A stretch of 64,000 nucleotides of DNA, taken from positions 64,001-128,000 of the forward strand of contig JBJKRI010000005.1 in NCBI GenBank assembly GCA_046704725.1, written 5' to 3'. Positions within the stretch are counted from its first letter, which is position 1, and every line of letters starts with the position of its first letter. Of this stretch, positions 43,963 through 57,290 are shown in pieces. Both the position numbers and the translations under genes were made by a program. The DNA is from Candidatus Woesearchaeota archaeon (GTDB lineage Archaea; Nanobdellota; Nanobdellia; Woesearchaeales; SKIA01). The notes beneath the pieces are model-generated. The model saw nothing but the letters and a program-made list of their open reading frames with translations. It had not been told where the DNA came from and did not search any database.

Positions 43963-44077
43963 TGGGGATGGAGGGATTCGAACCCCCGTCGGCCGGTATC
44001 TTCAATGGTCATCGGCCTTGCGACCTCAACGCTCCACTACTGGAGCCGGCTGTTCTACCAGGTTATACTACATCCCC
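43963..44077 (-). tRNA. tRNA-Trp(CCA) with a 42-nt intron at 37/38 (intron 43998-44039)
   Basis: Acceptor GGGGATG/CATCCCC, anticodon stem GCCGG/CCGGC, CT-CCA-G loop, bulge-helix-bulge motif; spliced length 73 nt. Confidence 0.95.
43998..44039 (-). ncRNA. Intron-encoded minimal box C/D-type guide, predicted target C34 of tRNA-Trp
   Basis: TGGAGC antisense to G31-A36, followed by G-TTGA (D-like box), a GCAA hairpin and CGATGA (C-like box); D+5 position pairs with C34. Confidence 0.65.
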
Positions 44078-44795: not shown

Positions 44796-47396
44796 CTACT
44801 CGTCGAAGGGCCTGCACAAACGGCAGGGGGAGTACCCGCCCTTCAAGGCCTCTTCGCGGCTCTTGTAGACGACGCGCTTCTCCTTGGAGATGCGCTGGGC
44901 GATCGGGCACTCGGCGCGGTGGATGCGCTTGCCGCCCTCGGAGGTCACGAAGACCTCTTTCTTGGGCGCGGCCTGGTTGATCACCTTGTCGCCAGCGATG
45001 ACATCACCGTGGACGGTCGGGCCCTTCACCTGCTCGGGCGTCTGCTCGACGCGCACGACAGGGGCTTGCGAGCCAGCGACGAGCTCGCGGACGGGCTTGC
45101 CGTAGCGCTCCTCGAGCTTCTTGTGCGGCAGCATCACCGCATAGATTGCGCAGAGCACGAAGAGCAGCGCGAGCAGCGCGAAGAAGATAGGACCGCAGAA
45201 CAGCGAGACGTAGTCGCCGAAGGAGTGCGGCACCAATCGCAGGACGCGCACCGTCATGACCGGGCTGTCCGTCGAGGCGCCCTTATTGTCCGTCGCGGTG
45301 AACACCACATGCTCCTCGCCGAAGAAGCCGCTCTGTGGCTTGAGGTAGGCTGTGGTGTTCTCGATGCGCACGGCCATGTGCTGCGGCTGGGACGAGGTGA
45401 ACGTGAGATTGTCGAGGTCAGGGTCGTAGAAGTACTTGGCCAGGTTGATGGTCAGGACGTTGCCCTGCGGGACCTCGTAGTAGAGGGCGGACGCGTTCGT
45501 GCCGTGCGGCGTCTCGGCGAGCTGCTGGGGCACGGTGACCTGGCTCGCGAGTATCGCCGCGACGATCAACGACAATACCATGAGCGCGAGCAGCACGGTC
45601 ACGATGGCGGGCTTGCTCGCTTCCTTGAAGGATATCTTTGGGAGCACCCCCGTGTAGGTGAGCAGCAAGACGATGAGCGCGAGCACGACGAGGACCACAC
45701 CGATGGCGACCAGCAGCAAGCACCAGTCGAGGCTGCCGGCGGCGCCGAAGGCGATGCTCTCGTACGCGCTGGTCAGCCAGCTCTTCTGCGAGACCTGGAA
45801 GCTCATGTCGTAGCGGTACTGGGAGCGCGGCGAGGTCAGGACGAGCGAACCGACGGTCGTGCCCTGGTTCTGCGAGAGGTTCGTCGGAATGAGGTGGAGC
45901 ACGGCCTGCTCGCCCGGAGCGAGGAAGACGCTCGTCGTGTTCAGCCTGAACAGCGGGCTGTTCCACTGCACCGCGTAGGTCGCGGCATCGATGCCCGTGT
46001 TCGTGATGAGGATGGGGACGACCTTGGCGTCCGTGTAGACCTTGTACTTGGTGTTCTCGGGAGCGACCATGGTGCAGTCCGCGTTGCTCACGGCGTGCAC
46101 AGGGATGTGCGTGGTCGTGGAGATGCCAGAGGACTGCGTGGCCGTCGCGGTCACGTCATAGGTCTGCGTGCGATCAGGGATCACCATTTGGAGGGTGACG
46201 TCCTTATGCTCGCCCGGACGCAGCCAGAACCGGCTCTGCACCGGGTGCGAGTAGATGTCGCCGCTGCTGGTGACAGTGAAGTTCTGCGCGTACATGCCGC
46301 GGTTCTGCACCTGCACGGTCACGTTCGTGGGGCCGGCGCACGCGGTCTGCTGCGCGGGCAGGGACTGGACGACCTGTTCGTAGCAGTCCTGCACCTGCAG
46401 GGGAGCGTCGAGCGTGTGTGTGGTACCGCCGAGCAAGGCCTTGGCAGTGATGCGAAGGTCCTGCGTGCCGAGGTCCGACTTGTGCGGCCGGAGCGTGACG
46501 GGGATGTCCACGGACTGTCCGGGAGCGAGCGAGACGTTCGTGACGCCGAGCGTCGCCCAGTACGGACCGTCTACATTGAGCGTGTAGGTGTTCGCCGTCT
46601 GCGCGGTGTTCGCGAGGTGCACGGTCATGGGCGTCGTGACCTCGGCGCAGACCGCCTGCTGGTTCGTCGTGAGCGCGAACTCGTAGTCCCACTGGATGTG
46701 CACGTCAGAGACGTGCGACTGCGAGACGCCCGTCTTGTCGGCGTGCGCGACGAATACCACTTGCTTGTTCCCGTACTCGCTGCAGCTGAAGCGCGCGACG
46801 GCATCGACGGTCTCGTTCTCGCCCGGAGCGAGCGCGAAGGACCGCCGGCTGAAGAGGACCTGCGCGGACGTGTCGGCCGAGAGGTTGTAGGTCTCGGTGT
46901 ACGTCGCGGTGTTCTGCACGGTCACCTCGTAACGGATCGGGCGGCAGGGAAGGACGTTGTCGTCGAGCTGCTGCACGGAGAGCCCGATGGGCTGGCAGGC
47001 CTCGACGGTGATGTCCCTGTTCGCCGCTCGATAGCGGCCGAACTGGCTGGTCGCGTAGATATTGTAATGGCTGGTGCCTGTGGTGCCGCACGGCGGCTGG
47101 AGCGTAACGGCGACCTGGGTCGCCTCTCCGGGCTGGAGGTCCACATGATTGCGGCTCACCCAGATCCAGGGCTGGCTCGCGTCGAGCGAGACCTGGTAGG
47201 AGGCGGGGAAATCCCCGAGATTATTGATGGTGAAGTAGTCCGTCGTCTGCCCGCAGGCGCAGACCTTGGTCTGCTGCGGCGCGGCGTTGAACTGCGCCTC
47301 GTGGCTGTAGGTCGTGACGCTGATGGCAGCGCTCGCTATCGGCGCGAGCAGCGCGAGGGCGAGCACGAGACTAATAATGCGTGATGAGTTCTTCAT
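44796..47396 (-). CDS. Multi-pass surface protein: Ig-like repeats, 3 TM, cadherin-like domain, C-terminal Ada-type Zn-binding domain
   Basis: Signal peptide MKNSSRII; repeated N.G..Y.L..LAPGE units; YFYDPDLDNLTF; IHRAEC..EEALKGGYSPCRLC. Confidence 0.9.
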   Translation of the reverse strand: MKNSSRIISLVLALALLAPIASAAISVTTYSHEAQFNAAPQQTKVCACGQTTDYFTINNLGDFPASYQVSLDASQPWIWVSRNHVDLQPGEATQVAVTLQPPCGTTGTSHYNIYATSQFGRYRAANRDITVEACQPIGLSVQQLDDNVLPCRPIRYEVTVQNTATYTETYNLSADTSAQVLFSRRSFALAPGENETVDAVARFSCSEYGNKQVVFVAHADKTGVSQSHVSDVHIQWDYEFALTTNQQAVCAEVTTPMTVHLANTAQTANTYTLNVDGPYWATLGVTNVSLAPGQSVDIPVTLRPHKSDLGTQDLRITAKALLGGTTHTLDAPLQVQDCYEQVVQSLPAQQTACAGPTNVTVQVQNRGMYAQNFTVTSSGDIYSHPVQSRFWLRPGEHKDVTLQMVIPDRTQTYDVTATATQSSGISTTTHIPVHAVSNADCTMVAPENTKYKVYTDAKVVPILITNTGIDAATYAVQWNSPLFRLNTTSVFLAPGEQAVLHLIPTNLSQNQGTTVGSLVLTSPRSQYRYDMSFQVSQKSWLTSAYESIAFGAAGSLDWCLLLVAIGVVLVVLALIVLLLTYTGVLPKISFKEASKPAIVTVLLALMVLSLIVAAILASQVTVPQQLAETPHGTNASALYYEVPQGNVLTINLAKYFYDPDLDNLTFTSSQPQHMAVRIENTTAYLKPQSGFFGEEHVVFTATDNKGASTDSPVMTVRVLRLVPHSFGDYVSLFCGPIFFALLALLFVLCAIYAVMLPHKKLEERYGKPVRELVAGSQAPVVRVEQTPEQVKGPTVHGDVIAGDKVINQAAPKKEVFVTSEGGKRIHRAECPIAQRISKEKRVVYKSREEALKGGYSPCRLCRPFDE

Positions 47397-48201
47397 CTTC
47401 TTTCTCCTTTCTCCGGTTCCAGGCAATCGCCAGGATGATGAGCGCGATGAGCACGACCACGATGATGACAGAGACCAGCCACTGCGAGAATCCCTTGGCG
47501 GGCTCCGCGCTGAGCACGGCGAAAGCGCTGTCCAACCGCTCGTGGGTGTTGTCGTAATCGACGGTGAAGGTGACCTGATGCATGCCGAGCGGCGCGTCCT
47601 TGTCGATGCTGACGGACAGGTATGCCGTCCGCTCGCTGTTCGCGGGGATCGTGAGGTATTGTGTGGGCTCGACGGCGAAGGTGCTCCACGTGCGGGCGCC
47701 CTGCATGCCGAGCAGCACCTGCTTGGGCGTGCTATAGGTGTTGGTGATGGTGACGGGGAAGTAGACCGTGCTGCCCTGCGGGATGTTCCGCAAGGGGTCG
47801 AAGGTCACGTGGATGGTGTCCGTGGAATAGTTCTGCTGCGGCAGCGTCGGGAGCGGAGTGACCTCGACGCGATAGGCCTGCTGGATGCCCGGACCGTACT
47901 CGGGAACGACGCGCAGCTCCATGCGCTGCGGGCCCGTGTAATCGGACGGGATGGGATACGTCTTGTCGAAGCGATAGACCAGGCCGGCCTGCGCGACCTG
48001 ATGGTCGTTGATCGCGCCGGGCAAGGTGATGTCCGTGGCCACCTGCCCGAGGGATGTGTCTCCCATGAGGGTGTACGCGACCTCGAGGTTCGATCCCGGA
48101 GCGACGGGCTGCGGCGTGACAGAAAGCTGGGTGATGCGCGGGACGGCCAGTACGCTCGAGGCGCACAGGACGAGCACCGCTATCAGCATCACGCTTCTCA
48201 T
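47371..48201 (-). CDS. Membrane-anchored Ig-like (COG1470/S-layer-associated-like) protein
   Basis: Signal peptide, two beta-sandwich domains, C-terminal TM and charged tail. Confidence 0.85.
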   Translation of the reverse strand: MRSVMLIAVLVLCASSVLAVPRITQLSVTPQPVAPGSNLEVAYTLMGDTSLGQVATDITLPGAINDHQVAQAGLVYRFDKTYPIPSDYTGPQRMELRVVPEYGPGIQQAYRVEVTPLPTLPQQNYSTDTIHVTFDPLRNIPQGSTVYFPVTITNTYSTPKQVLLGMQGARTWSTFAVEPTQYLTIPANSERTAYLSVSIDKDAPLGMHQVTFTVDYDNTHERLDSAFAVLSAEPAKGFSQWLVSVIIVVVLIALIILAIAWNRRKEKEDEELITHY

Positions 48202-48254: not shown

Positions 48255-51200
48255 TTAGTGATGACGGCGAGGGCGTTTCTTATGGACGCGTGGCTGCTTG
48301 TGCACACGCAACGCGGCGACGATCGCGATCGCGACGATCAGGGCGACGAGCACGATCCACAACACATCCCACGCAGTGAAACCGCCCCTGCTGGTGTGCG
48401 GCACGTTCGAGAGGGGCACAACATGGGCGACGAGATAGACATCCTTCTGCGAACCGTCGGTGGTGAGGGTGACGCGGAACGGGTACTGTCCCTCGGGCGT
48501 CGCCTTGGGAGCGAAGACGCGCAGGTCGGTGTGCAAGGTCTGGCCCGCCGGGACCACGACGACGTTGCCCGACTCGAAGACGTAATCGCCCCACGGCAAT
48601 ATGCCGTCGGCCGCGAGCATGTAGGTGCGCGATGTGGAACCGTCATTGCTGATGGTGAGCGGGAACACGCCGCCCTGGGAACTGCCGGCGAGCACATCCT
48701 GCATCTGGTAGAACGAGGCGTTGGTGCCGCCCGCTCCGGGAGCGCACGTCTTCGACGGGTCGACACGCAGGTTGGTGCCCTTCTGGGACTGGACGCCGGC
48801 GCCCTGCACGCCGCACAAGACGAGGTACGTCCCCGGTTGGCTGCACACGGGCAGGCGCAGGTTCAACGTGCGCGAGGTCATCTGTCCGGGCTGGAGGCTG
48901 AGGATGGTGTGGCCTTGCTCGACGCCGAGGCTCGGGATCGCCGCTGAGAGGCGGGCGTTCTGCAAGGCGTGGTCGAGGTTGTTTGTGACGATGACATCGA
49001 CGGGAGCGTACAGGCCGCCCGACAAGCCCTGCGTCTGCTGGAGCTGGCACTGGACCATGACATCGCACGCGTCGCCGCGCCCGTCATGGTTGCTGTCGAT
49101 CTGGGAGGGGTTGTACGCCAACGGGCAGTTGTCCTTGGAGTCGATGACGCCGTCGCAATCCGTATCGTCCTGGAAGACGCCGTTCACCTTGATGGCGCAG
49201 GTCTTGGACGGCGGGATGCCCGGACCGAGGACGGGCGGTGGGTAGAAGCCGTTGTCGTTGGTCAGGTCATGGTTGACGACGGTGAAGGTCGCGCTGTCCG
49301 TCGCCTGGGTGCAGCCGCGCACGCCGAAGGTGATGGCTTCGGAGATCTGGCCGACCGGTGACGAGGACGAGAAGATGTTCTTGTCGAAGCCAACGTGCAC
49401 GGTCGAGTCGTTCGCGATGGTGACAGAGAGGAACTTGCTGCCCGTCGCGGTGTAGCGCAGGCCCGTCGTGTCCACGCCCTGCACGTAATCGCCGAGCTTG
49501 AAGTCGTCGAAGTGTTCGTCCGACTGGATGATCTGGTCGGGGATGCCCGCGATGATGGGCGCGACAGAACTCGTGGGCAATGTGTTGTAGGTGACCGTCT
49601 GCGTCGAGGTGCGTCCCTTGTCATCGGTGAGGGTGATGGTGAGCGTCTCGGTGAACGGACCGCTCTGGAGAGGGTCGGTCACGTTGAGGACGTGCGTGTT
49701 CGGGTCCAGGTGGACCTGCAGACGCTGGTTGCCTGAGACGGAGAGATGATAGTTGTTCTTGATGGCGTCATCCACGATGTAGTTGTCCAGGTCGATGCTC
49801 GGGAACGAGCTGCCGCAGGTGAGCACCTGGTTGGGGATGGGCAGGATGTAGGGCGCCTTGTCCACCGAGGGGACCGTCGTCTGTCCCGTGCCTGTGAGGA
49901 TGATGCGCGCGCTCGCCGTGCGCCCGTTGGCGAGGTGGGCGGTGTTCCATATCGTGGACTGCACGCCAGGGTCGAGGTCGCTGCTGCTCACCTTCGCTTG
50001 GTAGCTGATCGTGGCTGTGGACTGCGCGGGGATATTGTAGAGCGTGAGCCCGTTGCCGTCGGCGACGCTGCCCGATGTGGCGACGTAGAAGGTGCCGGAG
50101 GGGCCTGTTCCCGTCACGTACTGGTTGCCCAGGAAGGTGACCGAACCGCCGTTGGTGCCCTGGATGACGCCGCCGTCCTCGCCGAGGGTGTCCGTCACGG
50201 TAGTGTTGCCTGCGGAATCACCGTTGTTGCGCACGGTGATCGTGTAGCCGACGACATTGCCGTTCGATGGCTGGTTATTGGTGACGGCCTTGGTGACCGA
50301 GAAGTCGGGACCTTGCCCAGGACCGGGGATGACCTGCCCGCTGGGCGAGACGGTGAGGGTGGCCGACGAGCTCTTCGTCACGCCGTCGGCGACAGCGGTG
50401 GCCGTGTTCGTGATGGTGTCTTGCGTCGGTGCTGAGCTGACGTCCGCCTGGTAGGTGATGGTTGCCGTGCCGTTCAGGTTCGTGATATGCAGTCCGTTGC
50501 CGATGCTGCCATAGGCGTAACCGTCATGGGAGAAGACGACGGAGGTGCCGCCGTAGACATAGGTGGCGGTGGCGCCCGCGCTGCCCGTCAACGTCTTGGA
50601 TTGCGTGAAGCTGTCGGTGAGGTCCACGGTGGATGCTGTCCCCGAGACGGTGATGGTGTAGGTGACGCGACCGTCCTTGACCGTGGTCGGAGCGACGGTC
50701 TTGGAGATCGTGACGCCCGTAGAGGGGGTCGTGCCGCCTGTCGTGAGGTATACGCTCGCGCTCGCGGATTTCGTGGTGCCGTCGGCGAGCGTGGCCTTGG
50801 CGATGTTCGCGAGGTACTGCGCTGTGGATCCGGCGGTGGCGACCGCCGAATAGGTGATCGTGGCGGTGCCGTCGAGGTTGCTGAAGACATAGCCGCCGCC
50901 GGCCTGGCGATAGTAGCTGCCGGACGGGTCGTTCACGATCGGCGTTCCGGTCAGCGTGAGGGCGGCGCCGTTGGTCCCTGAGATGCCGCCACTGAGCAAG
51001 CCGTCGGCGAGCGTGACCGAGCTCTCCTGACCGCTGAGCGTGATGGTGTAGGTCGCGGACTGGCCATCTGTGAGCGTGCCGGTGCTCGCGGCCTTGCTGA
51101 TGGAGAATGTGGACGCGCTTGCCGCGCAGGCGGACGGGTCCTGGCTGGGGTTGAATGTGCAGGGGCAATTGTCGATGTTGTCGGGGACCTTGTCGCGGTC

Positions 51201-51422
51201 GCTATCGGCGAGATAGCAACTGAGCGTGCTGGAGCCCGGGCTCGATCCGCTCGGCGTGTAGCACGTCCCGTCCGTCGGGGTGCACGCCGGAGTGATGCCG
51301 GGGCACGCGATGGGTGTCTGCCCCGCGCAGGCGGTCCAAGCGTGGGCCGCGGTCGTGTGCACCAAGAAGAGTGCCACGACGATAGCGAGGACGAGAAGAA
51401 TGCGCGTTCCGGCCGCTCTCAT
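48255..51422 (-). CDS. Large surface protein with thrombospondin type-3 Ca-binding repeats, DUF11-like and Ig-like domains, C-terminal TM
   Basis: DSDRDKVPDNIDNCP, DTDCDGVIDSKDNCP..DGRGDACD; ISK..TYTITV repeats; TM followed by a basic tail. Confidence 0.9.
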   Translation of the reverse strand: MRAAGTRILLVLAIVVALFLVHTTAAHAWTACAGQTPIACPGITPACTPTDGTCYTPSGSSPGSSTLSCYLADSDRDKVPDNIDNCPCTFNPSQDPSACAASASTFSISKAASTGTLTDGQSATYTITLSGQESSVTLADGLLSGGISGTNGAALTLTGTPIVNDPSGSYYRQAGGGYVFSNLDGTATITYSAVATAGSTAQYLANIAKATLADGTTKSASASVYLTTGGTTPSTGVTISKTVAPTTVKDGRVTYTITVSGTASTVDLTDSFTQSKTLTGSAGATATYVYGGTSVVFSHDGYAYGSIGNGLHITNLNGTATITYQADVSSAPTQDTITNTATAVADGVTKSSSATLTVSPSGQVIPGPGQGPDFSVTKAVTNNQPSNGNVVGYTITVRNNGDSAGNTTVTDTLGEDGGVIQGTNGGSVTFLGNQYVTGTGPSGTFYVATSGSVADGNGLTLYNIPAQSTATISYQAKVSSSDLDPGVQSTIWNTAHLANGRTASARIILTGTGQTTVPSVDKAPYILPIPNQVLTCGSSFPSIDLDNYIVDDAIKNNYHLSVSGNQRLQVHLDPNTHVLNVTDPLQSGPFTETLTITLTDDKGRTSTQTVTYNTLPTSSVAPIIAGIPDQIIQSDEHFDDFKLGDYVQGVDTTGLRYTATGSKFLSVTIANDSTVHVGFDKNIFSSSSPVGQISEAITFGVRGCTQATDSATFTVVNHDLTNDNGFYPPPVLGPGIPPSKTCAIKVNGVFQDDTDCDGVIDSKDNCPLAYNPSQIDSNHDGRGDACDVMVQCQLQQTQGLSGGLYAPVDVIVTNNLDHALQNARLSAAIPSLGVEQGHTILSLQPGQMTSRTLNLRLPVCSQPGTYLVLCGVQGAGVQSQKGTNLRVDPSKTCAPGAGGTNASFYQMQDVLAGSSQGGVFPLTISNDGSTSRTYMLAADGILPWGDYVFESGNVVVVPAGQTLHTDLRVFAPKATPEGQYPFRVTLTTDGSQKDVYLVAHVVPLSNVPHTSRGGFTAWDVLWIVLVALIVAIAIVAALRVHKQPRVHKKRPRRHH

Positions 51423-51449
51423 GGCTTTTCTCCCCTGAAAGGGCGTTTA

Positions 51450-53171
51450 TTAATGTTTGTGCCTGATCGGGATCTCGACGGTGATACCGGCGCGGAACTG
51501 CCTGTTCTGGCCGAGGGTGTGGAGCGCGGCGCCGCTGTAGGAGGGGATGTCCTGCTCGAACCTGTTCTGGACGAATTCCCCTGTGACGCCCACATTTACC
51601 GGTCCGAGCGTGCGCGTCAGGGATGCACGCGTGTCGAGCTCCTTGTATCGCATGTCTGCGTTCTCCGACTGCACGTCGGTGTATTGCGCGTCGGCGCCGA
51701 TCCGCCATTCATGGACGGGGATGCGCACGCCCATCGCGGTGCTTGAGCCCTTCATGTCCGTTCTGGAATAGTTATGGGGTGTCGTCCCGAGCTCGCGTCG
51801 GGCGAACTGCGACCAGTTGGTGACTCCCGACATCGCGTAGAATCGCCCCCCCGCGTTGTTGGACCACAAGAGCATGGGGCCGACGCCCACAGCATAGATC
51901 GATTGGTCCTCCCCGTTGGGGATCCTCGATGCGGTCCGCTGGCGCAGGAACAGACCATCGCCGCCGACGAGGAAACGGACGTTGCCCGCCCTGGCCACCG
52001 CGAGCCCCGCCACGCCGTGCGCGTCGTAGAGGTTATCCGCTGTTCCCTGGTTTCCGCTGCGTCGGTACAGGCCTTGTCCGTTAGCGAACAGCGGTCCCAC
52101 GTCCGCGTCGAGAGAGACGCCGGCACCCCATTCGGGGTCGTTGCCGACCGTCCTTGTGGGCTGCAATGAGCGATAATCGGTTGTCAGCGAGCTGTTGACG
52201 CCTCCGTAGCCGATCACACCCACATCGAGATGGACGGCAGAGGGTCCATGCGTCTTTTTGTGAGCGTGTCGTGGGGCTTCGTGCGCTTTCTGCTCGCGGG
52301 CTTTCTGTTGACCTTGCGTCTTGTGGTGCTCATGCGCTTGCGGCTGCTCGTGGGTCTTGCGCTCGTGTTGGGCCTTCTTGCGCTTTCGCGCTGGCTCGCC
52401 TCCGAGCGAGGCGATGGTTGGAGCGGTGATATCGACTTTCTCTTCGATATGCACGATGTACGGCGCCGGTCGCGGAACGCCCGGCTGCGGCTTTCCGGCT
52501 TGCGCCACGGCCTTCTTTTCTCCAGGGTGTTGCGCTTTCGCCAGATATTGCGTGACGATCCGTGGCGGATTCGCGTACTCGATCGCCGCGAATGCGGAGC
52601 TGCAGATGTCCCGCTTGGGCTGGCAATCGTCGGAGTCGTTCCACATGTAGGCCTTGAAGGTGCGGTTCTGGTTGTCGCCGAGCGCTTTGTTCGTGTGCAC
52701 GACCCATCCGTCCCGCTCCTTGCCGTCGACGACGACAGTGGTATCCTGCTGGACGATGTCCTTGTAGTCTGCCTTGAACCCGGGGACGAAGCGGATGTGG
52801 TCATCCTTCTTGCCGTGGACGAAGACGGTCGGCCGCGTCCCGTCGAGGACGACGAGCTGCGAGTCCTTCGCGACGGCGGCCTTGCCGAAGGTGTCCATGA
52901 TACGATTGCCGTCCGGCGTGGTCGCGAGGTGCTTCTGGTTCCAGGGGGATCCCTCGATGCTGAGATACCCGAGGACCTTGCCGTCCTGCATGACCAGCAT
53001 CGGGCTGGTCTTCGGATTGCTGTTATTGGGCTGGACGAGGGTGTAATTATCGAGCTCGGGCTGCTGTTGGGGCTTCTGGGCGTGTAGCGGAAGGGCTGTC
53101 GCGAGCATCGCTGCCCCGGCGAAGACGCCGAGACGCGCCGTCCGGGCCACGCGTTCCAGAAGACTGTCCAT
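51450..53171 (-). CDS. Secreted protein with predicted C-terminal outer-membrane-type beta-barrel
   Basis: Signal-like N-terminus, K/Q/H/P-rich linker, about 12 amphipathic alternating strands in the last ~260 aa. Confidence 0.75.
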   Translation of the reverse strand: MDSLLERVARTARLGVFAGAAMLATALPLHAQKPQQQPELDNYTLVQPNNSNPKTSPMLVMQDGKVLGYLSIEGSPWNQKHLATTPDGNRIMDTFGKAAVAKDSQLVVLDGTRPTVFVHGKKDDHIRFVPGFKADYKDIVQQDTTVVVDGKERDGWVVHTNKALGDNQNRTFKAYMWNDSDDCQPKRDICSSAFAAIEYANPPRIVTQYLAKAQHPGEKKAVAQAGKPQPGVPRPAPYIVHIEEKVDITAPTIASLGGEPARKRKKAQHERKTHEQPQAHEHHKTQGQQKAREQKAHEAPRHAHKKTHGPSAVHLDVGVIGYGGVNSSLTTDYRSLQPTRTVGNDPEWGAGVSLDADVGPLFANGQGLYRRSGNQGTADNLYDAHGVAGLAVARAGNVRFLVGGDGLFLRQRTASRIPNGEDQSIYAVGVGPMLLWSNNAGGRFYAMSGVTNWSQFARRELGTTPHNYSRTDMKGSSTAMGVRIPVHEWRIGADAQYTDVQSENADMRYKELDTRASLTRTLGPVNVGVTGEFVQNRFEQDIPSYSGAALHTLGQNRQFRAGITVEIPIRHKH

Positions 53172-53282
53172 TGTCTCGGTGAACGCTGTCTTGGAATATA
53201 AATCTTACGTATTGTAACTACTAATAAGTTGTATCTTTATTCCCCAGAAACCTTATAAGCGCCCAGCCTGACCCCCAAGCGG

Positions 53283-56153
53283 ATGGCACGGGGGAAGCAC
53301 GAGAAGCACGCGCACAAGAAAGAAGCGCCAGAGTGGCAGCAGAAAGTCACGACGGTCGCCAAGAGCAAGTACGTGCTCATCGCCCTGCTGCTCGCCGTGA
53401 TGTTCTTCGCGGTCTACTTCCGCGCGTACCCGGCAAGCCTGCCCATCACCAAGACCTGGGCGCAAGGCACGCTGGAGAACCAGTACGTGCAGCAAGCGAC
53501 CACCCAGCTGCAGCAGCAATTCCCGCACCTGCCACCAGCGCAACTCCAGCAACGCGCGCAACAGCTCTACCAACAGCAAGTGGCACAGAATCCGCAACAG
53601 ATACAGCAACAGGTGGACACGCTCGCAGCGCAATTCAAGAGCAGGCTGCAGATGCCTGTGGTGACACCGTCAGGCAAGACGGTGCAACAGACCTACTTCC
53701 TCGCCATCGACCCGTACTACTGGCTGCGGCGCGTGCGCAACATCTACGCGCACGGCAACGTCTGCGACGCTACGATCAACGGGACATGCATGGACACGCA
53801 CATGCTCGCACCCAACGGCGTGCCCACGCAGAACGACTTCCACAGCTTCGTCGAAGCGGCCATCGGCAAGATCGGCTCGTTCTTCGGCTTCGCGCCCATC
53901 AGCGCGATGTTCTTCCTGCCGGCCATCTTCGCCGCGATAGCGGCGATACCGGCGTTCTTCATCATCGACAGGCGCTACGGCAGCTTCGCGGCCGCGGTCG
54001 GCGCATTGGTCATCGTCATCCATCCGGTCTTGTTAGGGAGAACCCCGGCCGGCTTCGTCGACACGGACATCTGGAACGCGCTATTCCCGCTCATGCTCGC
54101 ATGGCTGTTCCTCATCGGGCTCGACCGCAAGGACAAATGGGGATACGCCTACATGGCCGGAGCCGCAGTCTTCACCGGGCTCTACGCCAAGTTCTGGTCG
54201 GGCTGGTACTTCGCGTTCATCATCGTCTTGCTCACGCTCATCGGCTCGGCCGTCTACGCCGTGATACGCATGCTCATCGCGCAGAGGACCGAGCGCCTCT
54301 CGGCGGAGCACGCGAAAGCGGCGAAGGACTACGCGAAACGCAGCCTCATCCATCTCGGCGTGTTCATCGTGGTGACCGGCATCGTCGTGACGCTGCTCGC
54401 CGACTTCAAGACGTTCATCCAAGCGTTCTACGCACCGCTGCAGGCGTCCATAGGCATCCAGGCGCCCGTGAACCCAGACCTGTGGCCCAACGTATTGACG
54501 ACCGTCGCGGAGCTCAACACGGTGCCATTGGGGACCATCATCGGTGAGCTCGGCGGACGGCTCATCTTCATCCTCTCCGTGCTCGGGACGTTCACCTACG
54601 TGCTGCGCCTCAAGAGCCTCGGCTGGAAGCGCTGGGCCGCGGCGGTCGGCGTGATCGCGTACTACCTGCTGCTCACCACGACAACCGCGCTCAACATGAG
54701 CCTGTTCCTGTACTTCGTGCTCTTCATGCTCCCGCTCGTGCTCACCTACGCGTACAGCATCTTCAGCGAGGAGACCGTCACCATCCACTACGGGCTGCTC
54801 GTCATGGGTTGGTTCGCCGCGAGCATGTTCGCCACCACGCAAGGGACGCGTTTCCTGCTGCTCATCATCCCGTTCTTCGGCATCGCCATCGGCTTCGCCG
54901 TGGGCTGGCTGCTCAAGGTCCTGCCGCCCCTCGCGGAGAAGGAGATACAGATACCGCGCTTCTGGGGCGCGATCGTCACCATGGCGCTCGTGTTCGCCTT
55001 CATCTTCACGCCGGTGAGCGCGAACCTCATCGGCACGGCGCACAGCACCGGCATCAACGAGGTACCGAGCATGAACGACGCGTGGTGGACCGCCCTCAAG
55101 ACCATCGAGGCCGACTCGCAACCGAACGCCATAATCACGAGCTGGTGGGATTTCGGCCACTGGTTCAAGTACGTGGCGAACCGTTCGGTGACCTTCGACG
55201 GGGCGTCTCAGACAACGCACCAGGCACACTGGGTCGGTCTAATCCTGCAGACGAACAACGACACGAAAGCCGTGGGGATACTGCGCATGCTGGACTGCGG
55301 AGGCAACGACGCCTACGCGCGCGTGCTGGCGGTCGAGAAGGATCCGCTCAAGGCCTACAACGTGACTGACAGCCTCTTGGGGGTGAGCAAGCAGACCGCG
55401 GAGCAAAGACTGCTCGCGGACGGATTCACGCAGGCCCAGGCGCAAGGCGTGCTCGCCAAGACGCACTGCGACCCGCCCGAAGCATACCTCATCACCTCGT
55501 CGGACATGGTCGGCAAGGCAGCCGTGTGGGGCCACTTCGGTCTCTGGAACTTCGATAAGGCCTACGTCGCGAACGCCGCGGACAACGACAACCGTCAGAC
55601 GGCAATCGACAACATCTCGCACGAGCTCAACGTGAGCACAGCGGAAGCCACGCAGCTATACACGCAGGCCAAGACGCAGCCGACACGCGCGGCGCTCAAC
55701 GCCTGGGTATCGCCGTGGCCGTCGTTCGCCGGCGCCTCGACCTGCACGCCGCACAACGGCACGGAGAACTGCGGACTCGGACTGCAGGTCGGGACGCAAG
55801 CCGGGCAGAAGATCATCGCCAACCAGCTCATCGTCAATACCACGAGCCCGATGAACAGCAGTATCCTGCTCACCGCGAACGGGCAGTACGTCGGCGTGGT
55901 CAAGCCAGGTGTCTTGTACTACAACGGGACGCGGTACGACTTGGGTGGGCAATTGTCGCTCAGCGTGGACGTGGAGAACGATACAGTCATCATCGCGGAC
56001 GACTCGCTCGTGCACAGCATGTTCGCGCAGCTCTTCTACAGGCACGACAGCGGACCGTTCTTCCACGAAGTCACGACGCAGCGCCAGGTCACCGGAGGCT
56101 CCATCATCGTGTGGAAGGTCAACTGGGGCGCGTACATCAACGCGACCCGATAA
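53283..56153 (+). CDS. aglB: Oligosaccharyltransferase AglB (STT3 family)
   Basis: DPYY, GFVDTD, TVAE, SWWDFGHW and DMVGK motifs; many TM helices. Confidence 0.96.
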   Translation: MARGKHEKHAHKKEAPEWQQKVTTVAKSKYVLIALLLAVMFFAVYFRAYPASLPITKTWAQGTLENQYVQQATTQLQQQFPHLPPAQLQQRAQQLYQQQVAQNPQQIQQQVDTLAAQFKSRLQMPVVTPSGKTVQQTYFLAIDPYYWLRRVRNIYAHGNVCDATINGTCMDTHMLAPNGVPTQNDFHSFVEAAIGKIGSFFGFAPISAMFFLPAIFAAIAAIPAFFIIDRRYGSFAAAVGALVIVIHPVLLGRTPAGFVDTDIWNALFPLMLAWLFLIGLDRKDKWGYAYMAGAAVFTGLYAKFWSGWYFAFIIVLLTLIGSAVYAVIRMLIAQRTERLSAEHAKAAKDYAKRSLIHLGVFIVVTGIVVTLLADFKTFIQAFYAPLQASIGIQAPVNPDLWPNVLTTVAELNTVPLGTIIGELGGRLIFILSVLGTFTYVLRLKSLGWKRWAAAVGVIAYYLLLTTTTALNMSLFLYFVLFMLPLVLTYAYSIFSEETVTIHYGLLVMGWFAASMFATTQGTRFLLLIIPFFGIAIGFAVGWLLKVLPPLAEKEIQIPRFWGAIVTMALVFAFIFTPVSANLIGTAHSTGINEVPSMNDAWWTALKTIEADSQPNAIITSWWDFGHWFKYVANRSVTFDGASQTTHQAHWVGLILQTNNDTKAVGILRMLDCGGNDAYARVLAVEKDPLKAYNVTDSLLGVSKQTAEQRLLADGFTQAQAQGVLAKTHCDPPEAYLITSSDMVGKAAVWGHFGLWNFDKAYVANAADNDNRQTAIDNISHELNVSTAEATQLYTQAKTQPTRAALNAWVSPWPSFAGASTCTPHNGTENCGLGLQVGTQAGQKIIANQLIVNTTSPMNSSILLTANGQYVGVVKPGVLYYNGTRYDLGGQLSLSVDVENDTVIIADDSLVHSMFAQLFYRHDSGPFFHEVTTQRQVTGGSIIVWKVNWGAYINATR

Positions 56154-56183: not shown

Positions 56184-57290
56184 ATGCGACTATTGATATT
56201 CGCCGCGCACTTCCACCCGAAGATCGGTGGCGTGGAGAACTACGTGCTCGAACTCTCGAGACGGCTCGGAGGGATGGGCATTGATTGCATGATCGTCACC
56301 TTCAATACCATGGACGCTCCCGCGGAAGAACGCGTGGAGGGCGTGCGCGTCGTACGCTTGCCCTGCATATCCGTGCTCGGCGGCGAGCAGGCCATACCGC
56401 TGCCCGGCGCGTGGAAGGCCCTCCGGGCGTTGGGTCAGGAACGCTGGGACGCGGTGAACACGCACACACGGTTCTACCTCACGGCGTGGCTGGGAGCGCG
56501 CTTCGCGCAGAAGCACGGCCTGCCGCTCATCCACACGGAGCACGGGAACAGGCACGTCACGCACCCGAACCCCATCGTGACCGCATGCGCATGGCTCTAC
56601 GACATGACTCTCGGCCGCCTGCCGCTGCGGGCGGCGGACAAGGTGGTGTGCATCAGCAAGGCAGGCATACCGTTCGCCGAGCGTATGGGCGCCTCTAAGG
56701 AGGATATCGTCTACCTGCCGAACGCCATCGATATGAAGGCCGTCAAACGCACGGCATCATCCCTGCGTGCACGCTTGGGGATACCGAAGAAGCGGCGCAT
56801 CATCACGTACGTCGGACGGCTCATCCATGCGAAGGGGGTGCAGGACCTGTTCCAGGCCGTCGCTCCGCTGCGAGATATCGATGTGGTCATCGTCGGGGAC
56901 GGACCGTACCGCGCTGCGCTGGAGCGCTCTGCGCGCTCGTTCGGCGTGCGAGCGCACTTCCTCGGACAATTGCAGGTCAAGGGAGTATACTCGGCGCTTA
57001 GCGGGAGCGACCTGTTCGTCAATCCATCCTACTCCGAGGGACTGCCCACGAGCGTGCTCGAGGCGGCCGCGCTCGGCGTTCCCGCGATCGCCACGGACGT
57101 CGGGGGCACGCGCGAGATCCTGCCGGAGGACTGCCTGTTCGCGCCTCGGGATGTGGAGGCACTGCGTTCTCTCATCGGACGAGAGCCGGACGAGAAGCGG
57201 ACCGCGCAAGTGCAGAGACGCGTCCGCAGGACATTCGGCCTCGACACGGTCGCCCGGCGGTTCGCTGCACTGCTGAATACGCTGGTCTAG
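56184..57290 (+). CDS. Glycosyltransferase family 4
   Basis: GGVE, YVGRL..KG, PSYSEGLPTSVLEA. Confidence 0.94.
   Translation: MRLLIFAAHFHPKIGGVENYVLELSRRLGGMGIDCMIVTFNTMDAPAEERVEGVRVVRLPCISVLGGEQAIPLPGAWKALRALGQERWDAVNTHTRFYLTAWLGARFAQKHGLPLIHTEHGNRHVTHPNPIVTACAWLYDMTLGRLPLRAADKVVCISKAGIPFAERMGASKEDIVYLPNAIDMKAVKRTASSLRARLGIPKKRRIITYVGRLIHAKGVQDLFQAVAPLRDIDVVIVGDGPYRAALERSARSFGVRAHFLGQLQVKGVYSALSGSDLFVNPSYSEGLPTSVLEAAALGVPAIATDVGGTREILPEDCLFAPRDVEALRSLIGREPDEKRTAQVQRRVRRTFGLDTVARRFAALLNTLV

Follow-up and report, generated by a model that had tools for sequence, protein, structure and literature searches.

Porin-type membrane beta-barrels are regarded as a hallmark of bacterial outer membranes and organelles, and Omp85-family insertases are needed for them. 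The described systems closest to the one reported here are the monomeric, 12-14-stranded barrels of the Tsx, NanC/KdgM, OmpG and CymA type (PF03502, PF06178, PF09381 and PF16941), the 8-stranded, OmpA-like barrels of the family OMP_b-brl (PF13505) and the type Va autotransporters such as Ag43/Flu and EspP (PF03797). In addition, PopA-type porin-like proteins occur in bacterial predators, and a possible distant relative in the DPANN Altiarchaeales is mentioned in PMC12228718. Within the literature searched, this remark on Altiarchaeales was the sole related item, and no report of porin-type barrels in Woesearchaeota was found. In this work we analysed P0001, the 573-amino-acid protein of the stop-free open reading frame (ORF) 51450-53171, located on the minus strand of a 64,000-nucleotide stretch of DNA (hereafter the window; C5:64001-128000 of the genome G000) from a Woesearchaeales-type DPANN archaeon. 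With moderate confidence, we read P0001 as an exported surface protein whose tail is a 12-stranded barrel of the outer-membrane protein (OMP) type, acting as an anchor or pore, to which a variable N-terminal domain is tethered by a spacer, and which works together with a co-transcribed adhesin and surface-layer (S-layer)-like proteins.

The translation of P0001 divides into four parts and a short end, all encoded on the minus strand. Residues 1-31 (53079-53171) read as a Sec-type signal peptide, with a positively charged start, a 16-residue hydrophobic core falling within the first 45 residues of the protein, and a putative cleavage site at LHA-Q (the hyphen marks the predicted cut). Residues 32-214 (52530-53078) make up an N-terminal domain without an assigned fold, for which no match was found in Pfam, NCBIfam or the PDB sequences and which AlphaFold models with a predicted local distance difference test score (pLDDT) of about 30-50. 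A basic, low-complexity spacer follows at residues 215-311 (52239-52529), rich in His, Lys, Gln and Pro: its 97 residues include 13 K, 11 H, 9 Q, 11 P, 9 E and 6 R. The beta-rich tail, our candidate 12-stranded OMP-type barrel, spans residues 312-570 (51462-52238) and carries 12 amphipathic segments, and the last three residues (571-573, HKH) together with the TAA stop occupy 51450-51461, giving a C-terminal end without an aromatic residue. The preliminary description of this DNA, made from the letters alone, had drawn the same picture: the ORF, the LHA-Q N-terminus, all 12 quoted segments and the IRHKH end are present in the translation, the composition of the spacer agrees with the K/Q/H/P-rich linker claimed there, and the order of signal, N-terminal domain, linker and amphipathic tail of about 12 segments is found as proposed.

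The alternation of hydrophobic and polar residues along the tail goes beyond chance. Specifically, we summed the alternating hydrophobicity over the best 12 non-overlapping 9-mers and obtained 241.8 for residues 311-573 versus 195.2 +/- 15.9 for shuffled versions (z 2.9), a value reached by none of 300 shuffles. Applied to residues 32-230, which cover the N-terminal domain, the same calculation gave a score under the shuffle mean (z -1.5), one that 275 of the 300 shuffled versions attained. When the 12 strands of the tail were assigned by eye, the connectors between them measured 25, 2, 10, 3, 15, 6, 25, 1, 12, 2 and 23 residues, a strict alternation of long and short as in bacterial outer-membrane barrels; because of the by-eye assignment, this pattern is not independent of the barrel hypothesis. 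The outward faces of the tail are mostly hydrophobic (for example WAVLAV, MVIV, VVVGF and FAIVII), and aromatic residues lie at the segment ends.

Comparison through language-model features placed the tail (residues 308-573) nearest to clusters of bacterial outer-membrane barrels, with a best score of 0.95, a level that a shuffled protein reaches about once in 100 by a calibration made on whole proteins and not on parts. The named families near the tail, among the matches listed, are CymA, DUF6850, Phage_OMP, Tsx, OmpG and Porin_O_P, all of them outer-membrane barrels. With the whole of P0001 as query, the score was 0.92 and the families Phage_OMP, OmpG and CymA were retrieved.

By primary sequence, P0001 is an orphan. 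It was its own sole match both in a word search of 5.8 billion proteins and in an exhaustive phmmer search of 1,835,955,588 representatives, nothing was found in NCBIfam, and no other match appeared in its own genome or in 61 related genomes. The search for paralogues proposed in the preliminary description likewise came back empty, the genome yielding only P0001 itself.

The gene position, on the other hand, recurs. As stated in the preliminary description, the P0001 gene lies between a surface-protein gene (1055 amino acids, with TSP_3 and DUF11 domains; hereafter the giant surface protein) and aglB, which encodes the archaeal oligosaccharyltransferase (STT3, E 6e-26). The corresponding slot, upstream of the orthologue of the giant protein and near aglB, is occupied in three relatives, two of the same genus as G000 (G001 and G002) and one of another genus in the same family (G006). 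The occupants measure 642, 473 and 625 amino acids, respectively. Each begins with a hydrophobic stretch of the signal type, continues with a variable N-terminal part and a spacer that is charged or of low complexity, and ends in a tail of 250-270 amino acids rich in Gly, Ser, Thr and Asn; in G001 the start codon was probably mis-called upstream of the hydrophobic start. Equivalent gene order was seen in G216, G262, G358, G031 and others, and in most slot relatives a charged K/E/Q-rich spacer precedes a beta-rich tail. Two further slot proteins found only themselves among the 5.8 billion proteins, one of them having a marginal match (E 0.0017) in one of five genomes of its own genus. On sequence grounds, the slot is hypervariable across the order, and P0001 belongs to it by position and layout.

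A side observation concerns the signal peptides of these otherwise unlike slot proteins, among which many have ends of the A-Q type, such as LHA-Q, ADA-Q, AQA-Q, AYA-Q, TYA-Q and AMA-Q. They were read at residues 28-32 of P0001 and at the loci L008, L009, L064, L066, L070, L080, L084, L089, L095, L097, L099 and L105. In outer-membrane proteins of Bacteroidota, the mature chain typically starts with Gln.

Some members of the slot give weak matches to a described barrel family. The G002 occupant matched PF13505 (OMP_b-brl) over its last 107 residues with an E value of 6.7e-4 (20.3 bits) in a protein search and of 4.6e-6 (26 bits) in a genome scan, and it ends in ...GVRFSF. We extended the six-frame scan to 401 genomes of the order, a set on which all order-level tallies given here are based and which takes in up to 10 genomes flagged as unpublished, none of them a source of any sequence presented here. 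PF13505 was found at E<=0.001 in 11 of them, where about 0.4 would be expected by chance from simple arithmetic on the per-genome E-value cut-off; all hits stay under the gathering score of the family except two, which exceed it only when neighbouring stretches are summed. Among the controls, only the diderm bacteria E. coli, Caulobacter and Bacteroides were positive. At least six of the 11 ORFs (in G002, G243, G031, G216, G358 and G262) lie directly upstream of a giant surface gene and/or beside aglB, and the hit in G010 is probably also in a surface-gene cluster; the hits in G098 and G196, whose context may be bacterial, were left uncounted. P0001 itself has no PF13505 match, and the scan of G000 gave none.

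The same family emerged when ORFs were picked by position. We fetched 40 further loci by their S-layer-like gene only and selected the first ORF, or the first two, that precede the giant gene. A single Pfam family recurred in this set, PF13505, with matches in 4 of 35 ORFs, and one detailed match extends to the C-terminus. A bacterial-style last strand, with an aromatic among the final three residues, was present in 5 of 36 slot ORFs and in none of 200 other ORFs from these loci, figures that go with a last-strand definition set post hoc, one possibly spurious ORF among the five and related genomes that are not independent. The terminal aromatic was also read in P0003 and in P0004 (F at position -2). 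Judged in this way, the slot proteins resemble OMP barrels as a family.

Two observations on porin-type proteins elsewhere in the order are worth reporting here. At L064:5607-7892 (plus strand), in G374, a 761-amino-acid secreted protein contains an OMP_b-brl-like module and its charged spacer twice over, in identical copies of 25.5 bits each, a doubling due either to a very recent tandem duplication or to an assembly artefact; its gene stands outside the surface-gene cluster and adjoins gyrB-like and SRP54-like ORFs. Secondly, Gcw_chp (PF09694), a bacterial porin family, was detected in 4 of the 401 genomes, three of them just over the cut-off, in ORFs of 234-250 amino acids (L194-L197). Porin-type families are therefore sporadically present in an order without BamA.

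From the strand pattern, the language-model neighbours and the slot relatives, we infer the barrel fold, the membrane insertion and the role of P0001 as follows. The signal peptide would be removed at LHA-Q, and the last ~260 residues would form an antiparallel OMP-type beta-barrel of 12 strands with a hydrophobic outer face, the five short turns facing one side and the six long loops the opposite one. A hydrophobic exterior has to be shielded, here by a lipid layer or a protein lattice, and the barrel is therefore proposed to act as an anchor or a pore. The ~100-residue basic spacer would tie the variable N-terminal domain to it. Because no Omp85/BamA was found in the group, insertion would be either self-driven or assisted by some other helper, and its target may be an unrecognised outer archaeal layer, a protein lattice or the membrane of a partner cell.

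A number of results weigh against the barrel in P0001, and part of them favour a different explanation, namely that the tail folds as a beta-rich domain (a sandwich, jelly-roll or solenoid) that is soluble and extracellular, attaches to the S-layer or to the giant adhesin, and owes its likeness to porins to composition and strand alternation. We regard this as the main rival account, possible if somewhat doubtful. AlphaFold2 produced no barrel, either from the whole of P0001 alone (pLDDT 32.2) or from the tail aligned with its positional relatives in four rows (pLDDT 28.7); the low-confidence model of the tail (pLDDT about 30) does contain long hairpins, at 381-395/398-412 and 422-437, that coincide with the by-eye strands 4-6. 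The C-terminus, ...VEIPIRHKH, is devoid of the terminal aromatic that marks OMP_b-brl ends. Furthermore, outer-membrane machinery was not found: Omp85 (PF01103) had no match in G000 at E<=1 and none in the 401 genomes of the order, all seven diderm controls being positive, and G000 gave no match to LptD, TolC-type, autotransporter, KdgM or Gcw_chp families. This agrees with the preliminary description, which had remarked that most archaea have no BAM (beta-barrel assembly machinery) complex and had advised a search for BamA, and to our knowledge no outer membrane has been described for the Woesearchaeales-type group.

Our own attempts at a discriminating score also leave room for a soluble domain. 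Home-made scores, dyad counts among them, were checked on 12 OMP barrels of E. coli versus 113 other E. coli proteins. Counts of amphipathic windows were dominated by helical membrane proteins, amphipathic coverage did not separate OMPs from the soluble beta proteins FimA, FimG and NanM, which score like them, and single-sequence hhalign gave mean scores of 14.0 for OMPs versus 13.8 for the others. Composition log-odds did separate OMPs within E. coli; by this measure P0001 comes 40th among the 814 proteins of its proteome, after many surface proteins with immunoglobulin (Ig) domains, which are thus more OMP-like in composition than P0001 itself. All these scores are therefore uninformative as to a barrel or a soluble beta domain.

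The homology searches, too, weigh against the barrel reading of P0001. Neither domain of P0001 has a Pfam hit even at E<=10, no PDB sequence matches either domain or alignment A2, and PDB searches using P0001 relatives returned only noise. BLASTP of P0001 against the G001, G002 and G006 occupants revealed no similarity (E>0.5), and local phmmer comparisons of the slot proteins stayed at noise level (<=12 bits) within a 14-sequence set, with nothing at E<1 against 1373 ORFs. As P0001 has no sequence similarity to its positional relatives, its tie to the OMP_b-brl-like members is by position and layout only; those relatives, moreover, score 17-26 bits on PF13505 versus a gathering score of 28.7.

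Set against a soluble tail are four lines of evidence. The language-model neighbours are outer-membrane barrels and not Ig or sandwich families; sandwiches seldom have 12 segments of 9-14 residues with long loops and short turns in strict alternation; the slot relatives repeatedly match OMP_b-brl and never a sandwich family; and the beta-signal-like ends are confined to slot ORFs. The OMP-type barrel is kept, with moderate confidence, as the favoured reading of the tail.

A second alternative is that P0001 is a highly diverged type Va autotransporter of bacterial origin. The order of its parts would fit, since signal, passenger-like N-terminal domain, linker and a ~260-amino-acid C-terminal tail of 12 segments, the last assigned by eye, can be read in the sequence, and to this extent the autotransporter-like label of the preliminary description stands; a family tie is not supported, as PF03797 had no match in G000 at E<=1 (the controls were positive in 4 of 14) and P0001 has no Pfam hit. 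In addition, no bacterial or other relative appeared among the 1.84 billion representatives, the codon bias is that of a native gene, neither G000 nor the 401 genomes yielded Omp85, and the linker is a basic low-complexity stretch of ~100 residues and not a short helix. We consider such an origin very unlikely.

Several data bear on whether the gene is real and native. The genome G000 (1.18 Mb in 8 contigs, 99.7% complete, 0.6% contamination) contains a full-length archaeal small-subunit ribosomal RNA matching its model with 1425 bits, and the organism is a Woesearchaeales-type DPANN archaeon; the preliminary description had likewise taken it for an archaeon. The GC content of the P0001 ORF agrees with that of the adjoining genes, and its GC content at third codon positions (GC3) is 0.80, versus 0.82-0.89 for its neighbours; because of this agreement the P0001 frame is the coding one, and the competing ORFs that overlap it are typical high-GC shadows. 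Contamination by bacterial DNA, a chimeric assembly or an ORF that does not code, an explanation to which the orphan status of P0001 lends some colour, is scarcely credible given the 273-kb contig, the completeness and low contamination of the genome, the agreement in GC and GC3, the archaeal-type promoter boxes and the occupied slot between the same aglB and giant-gene flanks in three relatives, and the preliminary description was right to doubt it. P0001 is a real, native gene of an archaeal genome.

The surroundings of the gene point to a surface operon. P0001 and aglB are divergent and separated by an AT-rich intergenic region of 111 nucleotides (53172-53282), in which two TATA-like boxes were read: AATATAAAT at 53195-53203, 24-32 nucleotides upstream of the P0001 ATG, and TTATAA at 53253-53258, 25-30 nucleotides upstream of the aglB ATG. 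Going by the known position of archaeal TATA boxes, both would act as archaeal promoters. On the other side, a spacer of 27 nucleotides (51423-51449, minus strand) leads to the next gene and carries a GGGGAG ribosome-binding-like motif 7-12 nucleotides before its ATG, an arrangement which suggests that P0001 and the giant surface gene are co-transcribed. The latter (48255-51422, minus strand) encodes, besides the TSP_3 and DUF11 domains, Ig-like FixG_C/NPCBM_assoc modules and a C-terminal membrane anchor. It is followed by the genes of a 276-amino-acid, Ig-like secreted protein (47371-48201, minus strand), with a C-terminal membrane anchor and the end ...ELITHY, and of an 876-amino-acid multi-Ig surface protein (44796-47426, minus strand), the last of the operon. 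On the plus strand, aglB (53283-56153) is followed by a glycosyltransferase gene of family GT4 (56184-57290). P0001 would thus be the first gene of a putative four-gene surface operon beside aglB and GT4.

The partners of P0001 are better conserved than P0001 itself. Orthologues of the giant protein are near full length and 41-44% identical in G001, G002 and G006, and aglB has orthologues in 4 of the 5 relatives searched, at identities of 37-45%. Because every tested slot member is a singleton while the operon partners keep about 40% identity, the slot protein is likely to be a specificity determinant. P0001 diverges far more than the proteins encoded beside it in the operon, as would suit a component facing a partner cell, or viruses, where contact is made.

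Several features of these neighbours deserve mention on their own. The giant protein (48255-51422) has, besides its DUF11 and Ig-like modules, calcium-binding repeats of thrombospondin type 3 at each end, and only its last ~230 residues are conserved throughout the order; it was detected in 250 of the 401 genomes at E<=1e-10, mostly through that module. The S-layer-like proteins that close such operons across the order (about 410-480 amino acids) have a membrane helix, a basic and then an acidic stretch and a near-fixed ...(Q/E/K)TYY end, seen in 39 of 40 loci (L074-L113; fetched through this S-layer-like module), which may be a conserved anchoring or sorting signal; the 276-amino-acid protein of the window has ...ELITHY in that place. 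Many public contigs carrying a Woesearchaeales-type AglB (32-40% identity to that of the window; L121-L123, L168 and others) are titled 'uncultured Methanosarcinales archaeon', and one is titled 'Alphaproteobacteria bacterium'; they look like mislabelled bins. Elsewhere in the window, a 115-nucleotide transfer RNA (tRNA) gene at 43963-44077 (minus strand) was found with Rfam (48.6 bits) and is absent from the ARAGORN output; it probably contains an intron, and tRNA introns are common in archaea.

A wider hypothesis, which we put forward as speculative and on balance improbable, is that OMP-type barrels able to insert themselves without BamA are produced by Woesearchaeales, and perhaps by DPANN archaea in general, and that they form the membrane-penetrating tip of a hypervariable operon for attachment. 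The barrel would enter either the membrane of a partner cell, possibly a diderm bacterium, or an outer layer of the archaeon that has gone unrecognised, the spacer and N-terminal domain would stay tied to the S-layer and the giant adhesin, and an anchor or conduit between the two cells would result. If a conserved slot at the head of the surface operon serves for barrels of this kind in an archaeal order lacking Omp85, the question arises of which membrane they enter and by what route. Such a slot would also offer a specific candidate for the means by which DPANN archaea not yet in culture fasten on to their partners or draw on them.

P0001 can be compared first with the monomeric barrels of the Tsx, NanC/KdgM, OmpG and CymA type. 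The tail resembles them in its ~260 amino acids and 12 amphipathic segments, in short turns alternating with long loops and in aromatic residues at the strand ends, and these are the families nearest to it by language-model features. Unlike them, P0001 shows no sequence or profile match and no terminal aromatic, belongs to an archaeal host in which Omp85 was not found, and has its candidate barrel behind a domain of ~180 amino acids and a basic spacer of ~100. The OmpA-like barrels of PF13505 find weak matches in Woesearchaeales slot proteins that reach the C-terminus, several of them ending in F; P0001 differs in having about 12 segments over 259 amino acids versus about 8 over 175. With the type Va autotransporters it shares the order of signal, N-terminal domain, linker and 12-segment tail, but has neither a PF03797 match nor, in its host, BAM or a translocation and assembly module (TAM), and its spacer is long, basic and disordered-looking; nothing indicates that its N-terminal domain crosses the barrel. 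PopA (PMC12228718) is a porin-like barrel used by a cell living on other cells, and the likeness of P0001 to it is by description only. In conclusion, because no testable mark of family membership for autotransporters or monomeric porins was clearly established in P0001, we file it as a protein that works like an autotransporter or a monomeric porin, rather than as a member of either group.

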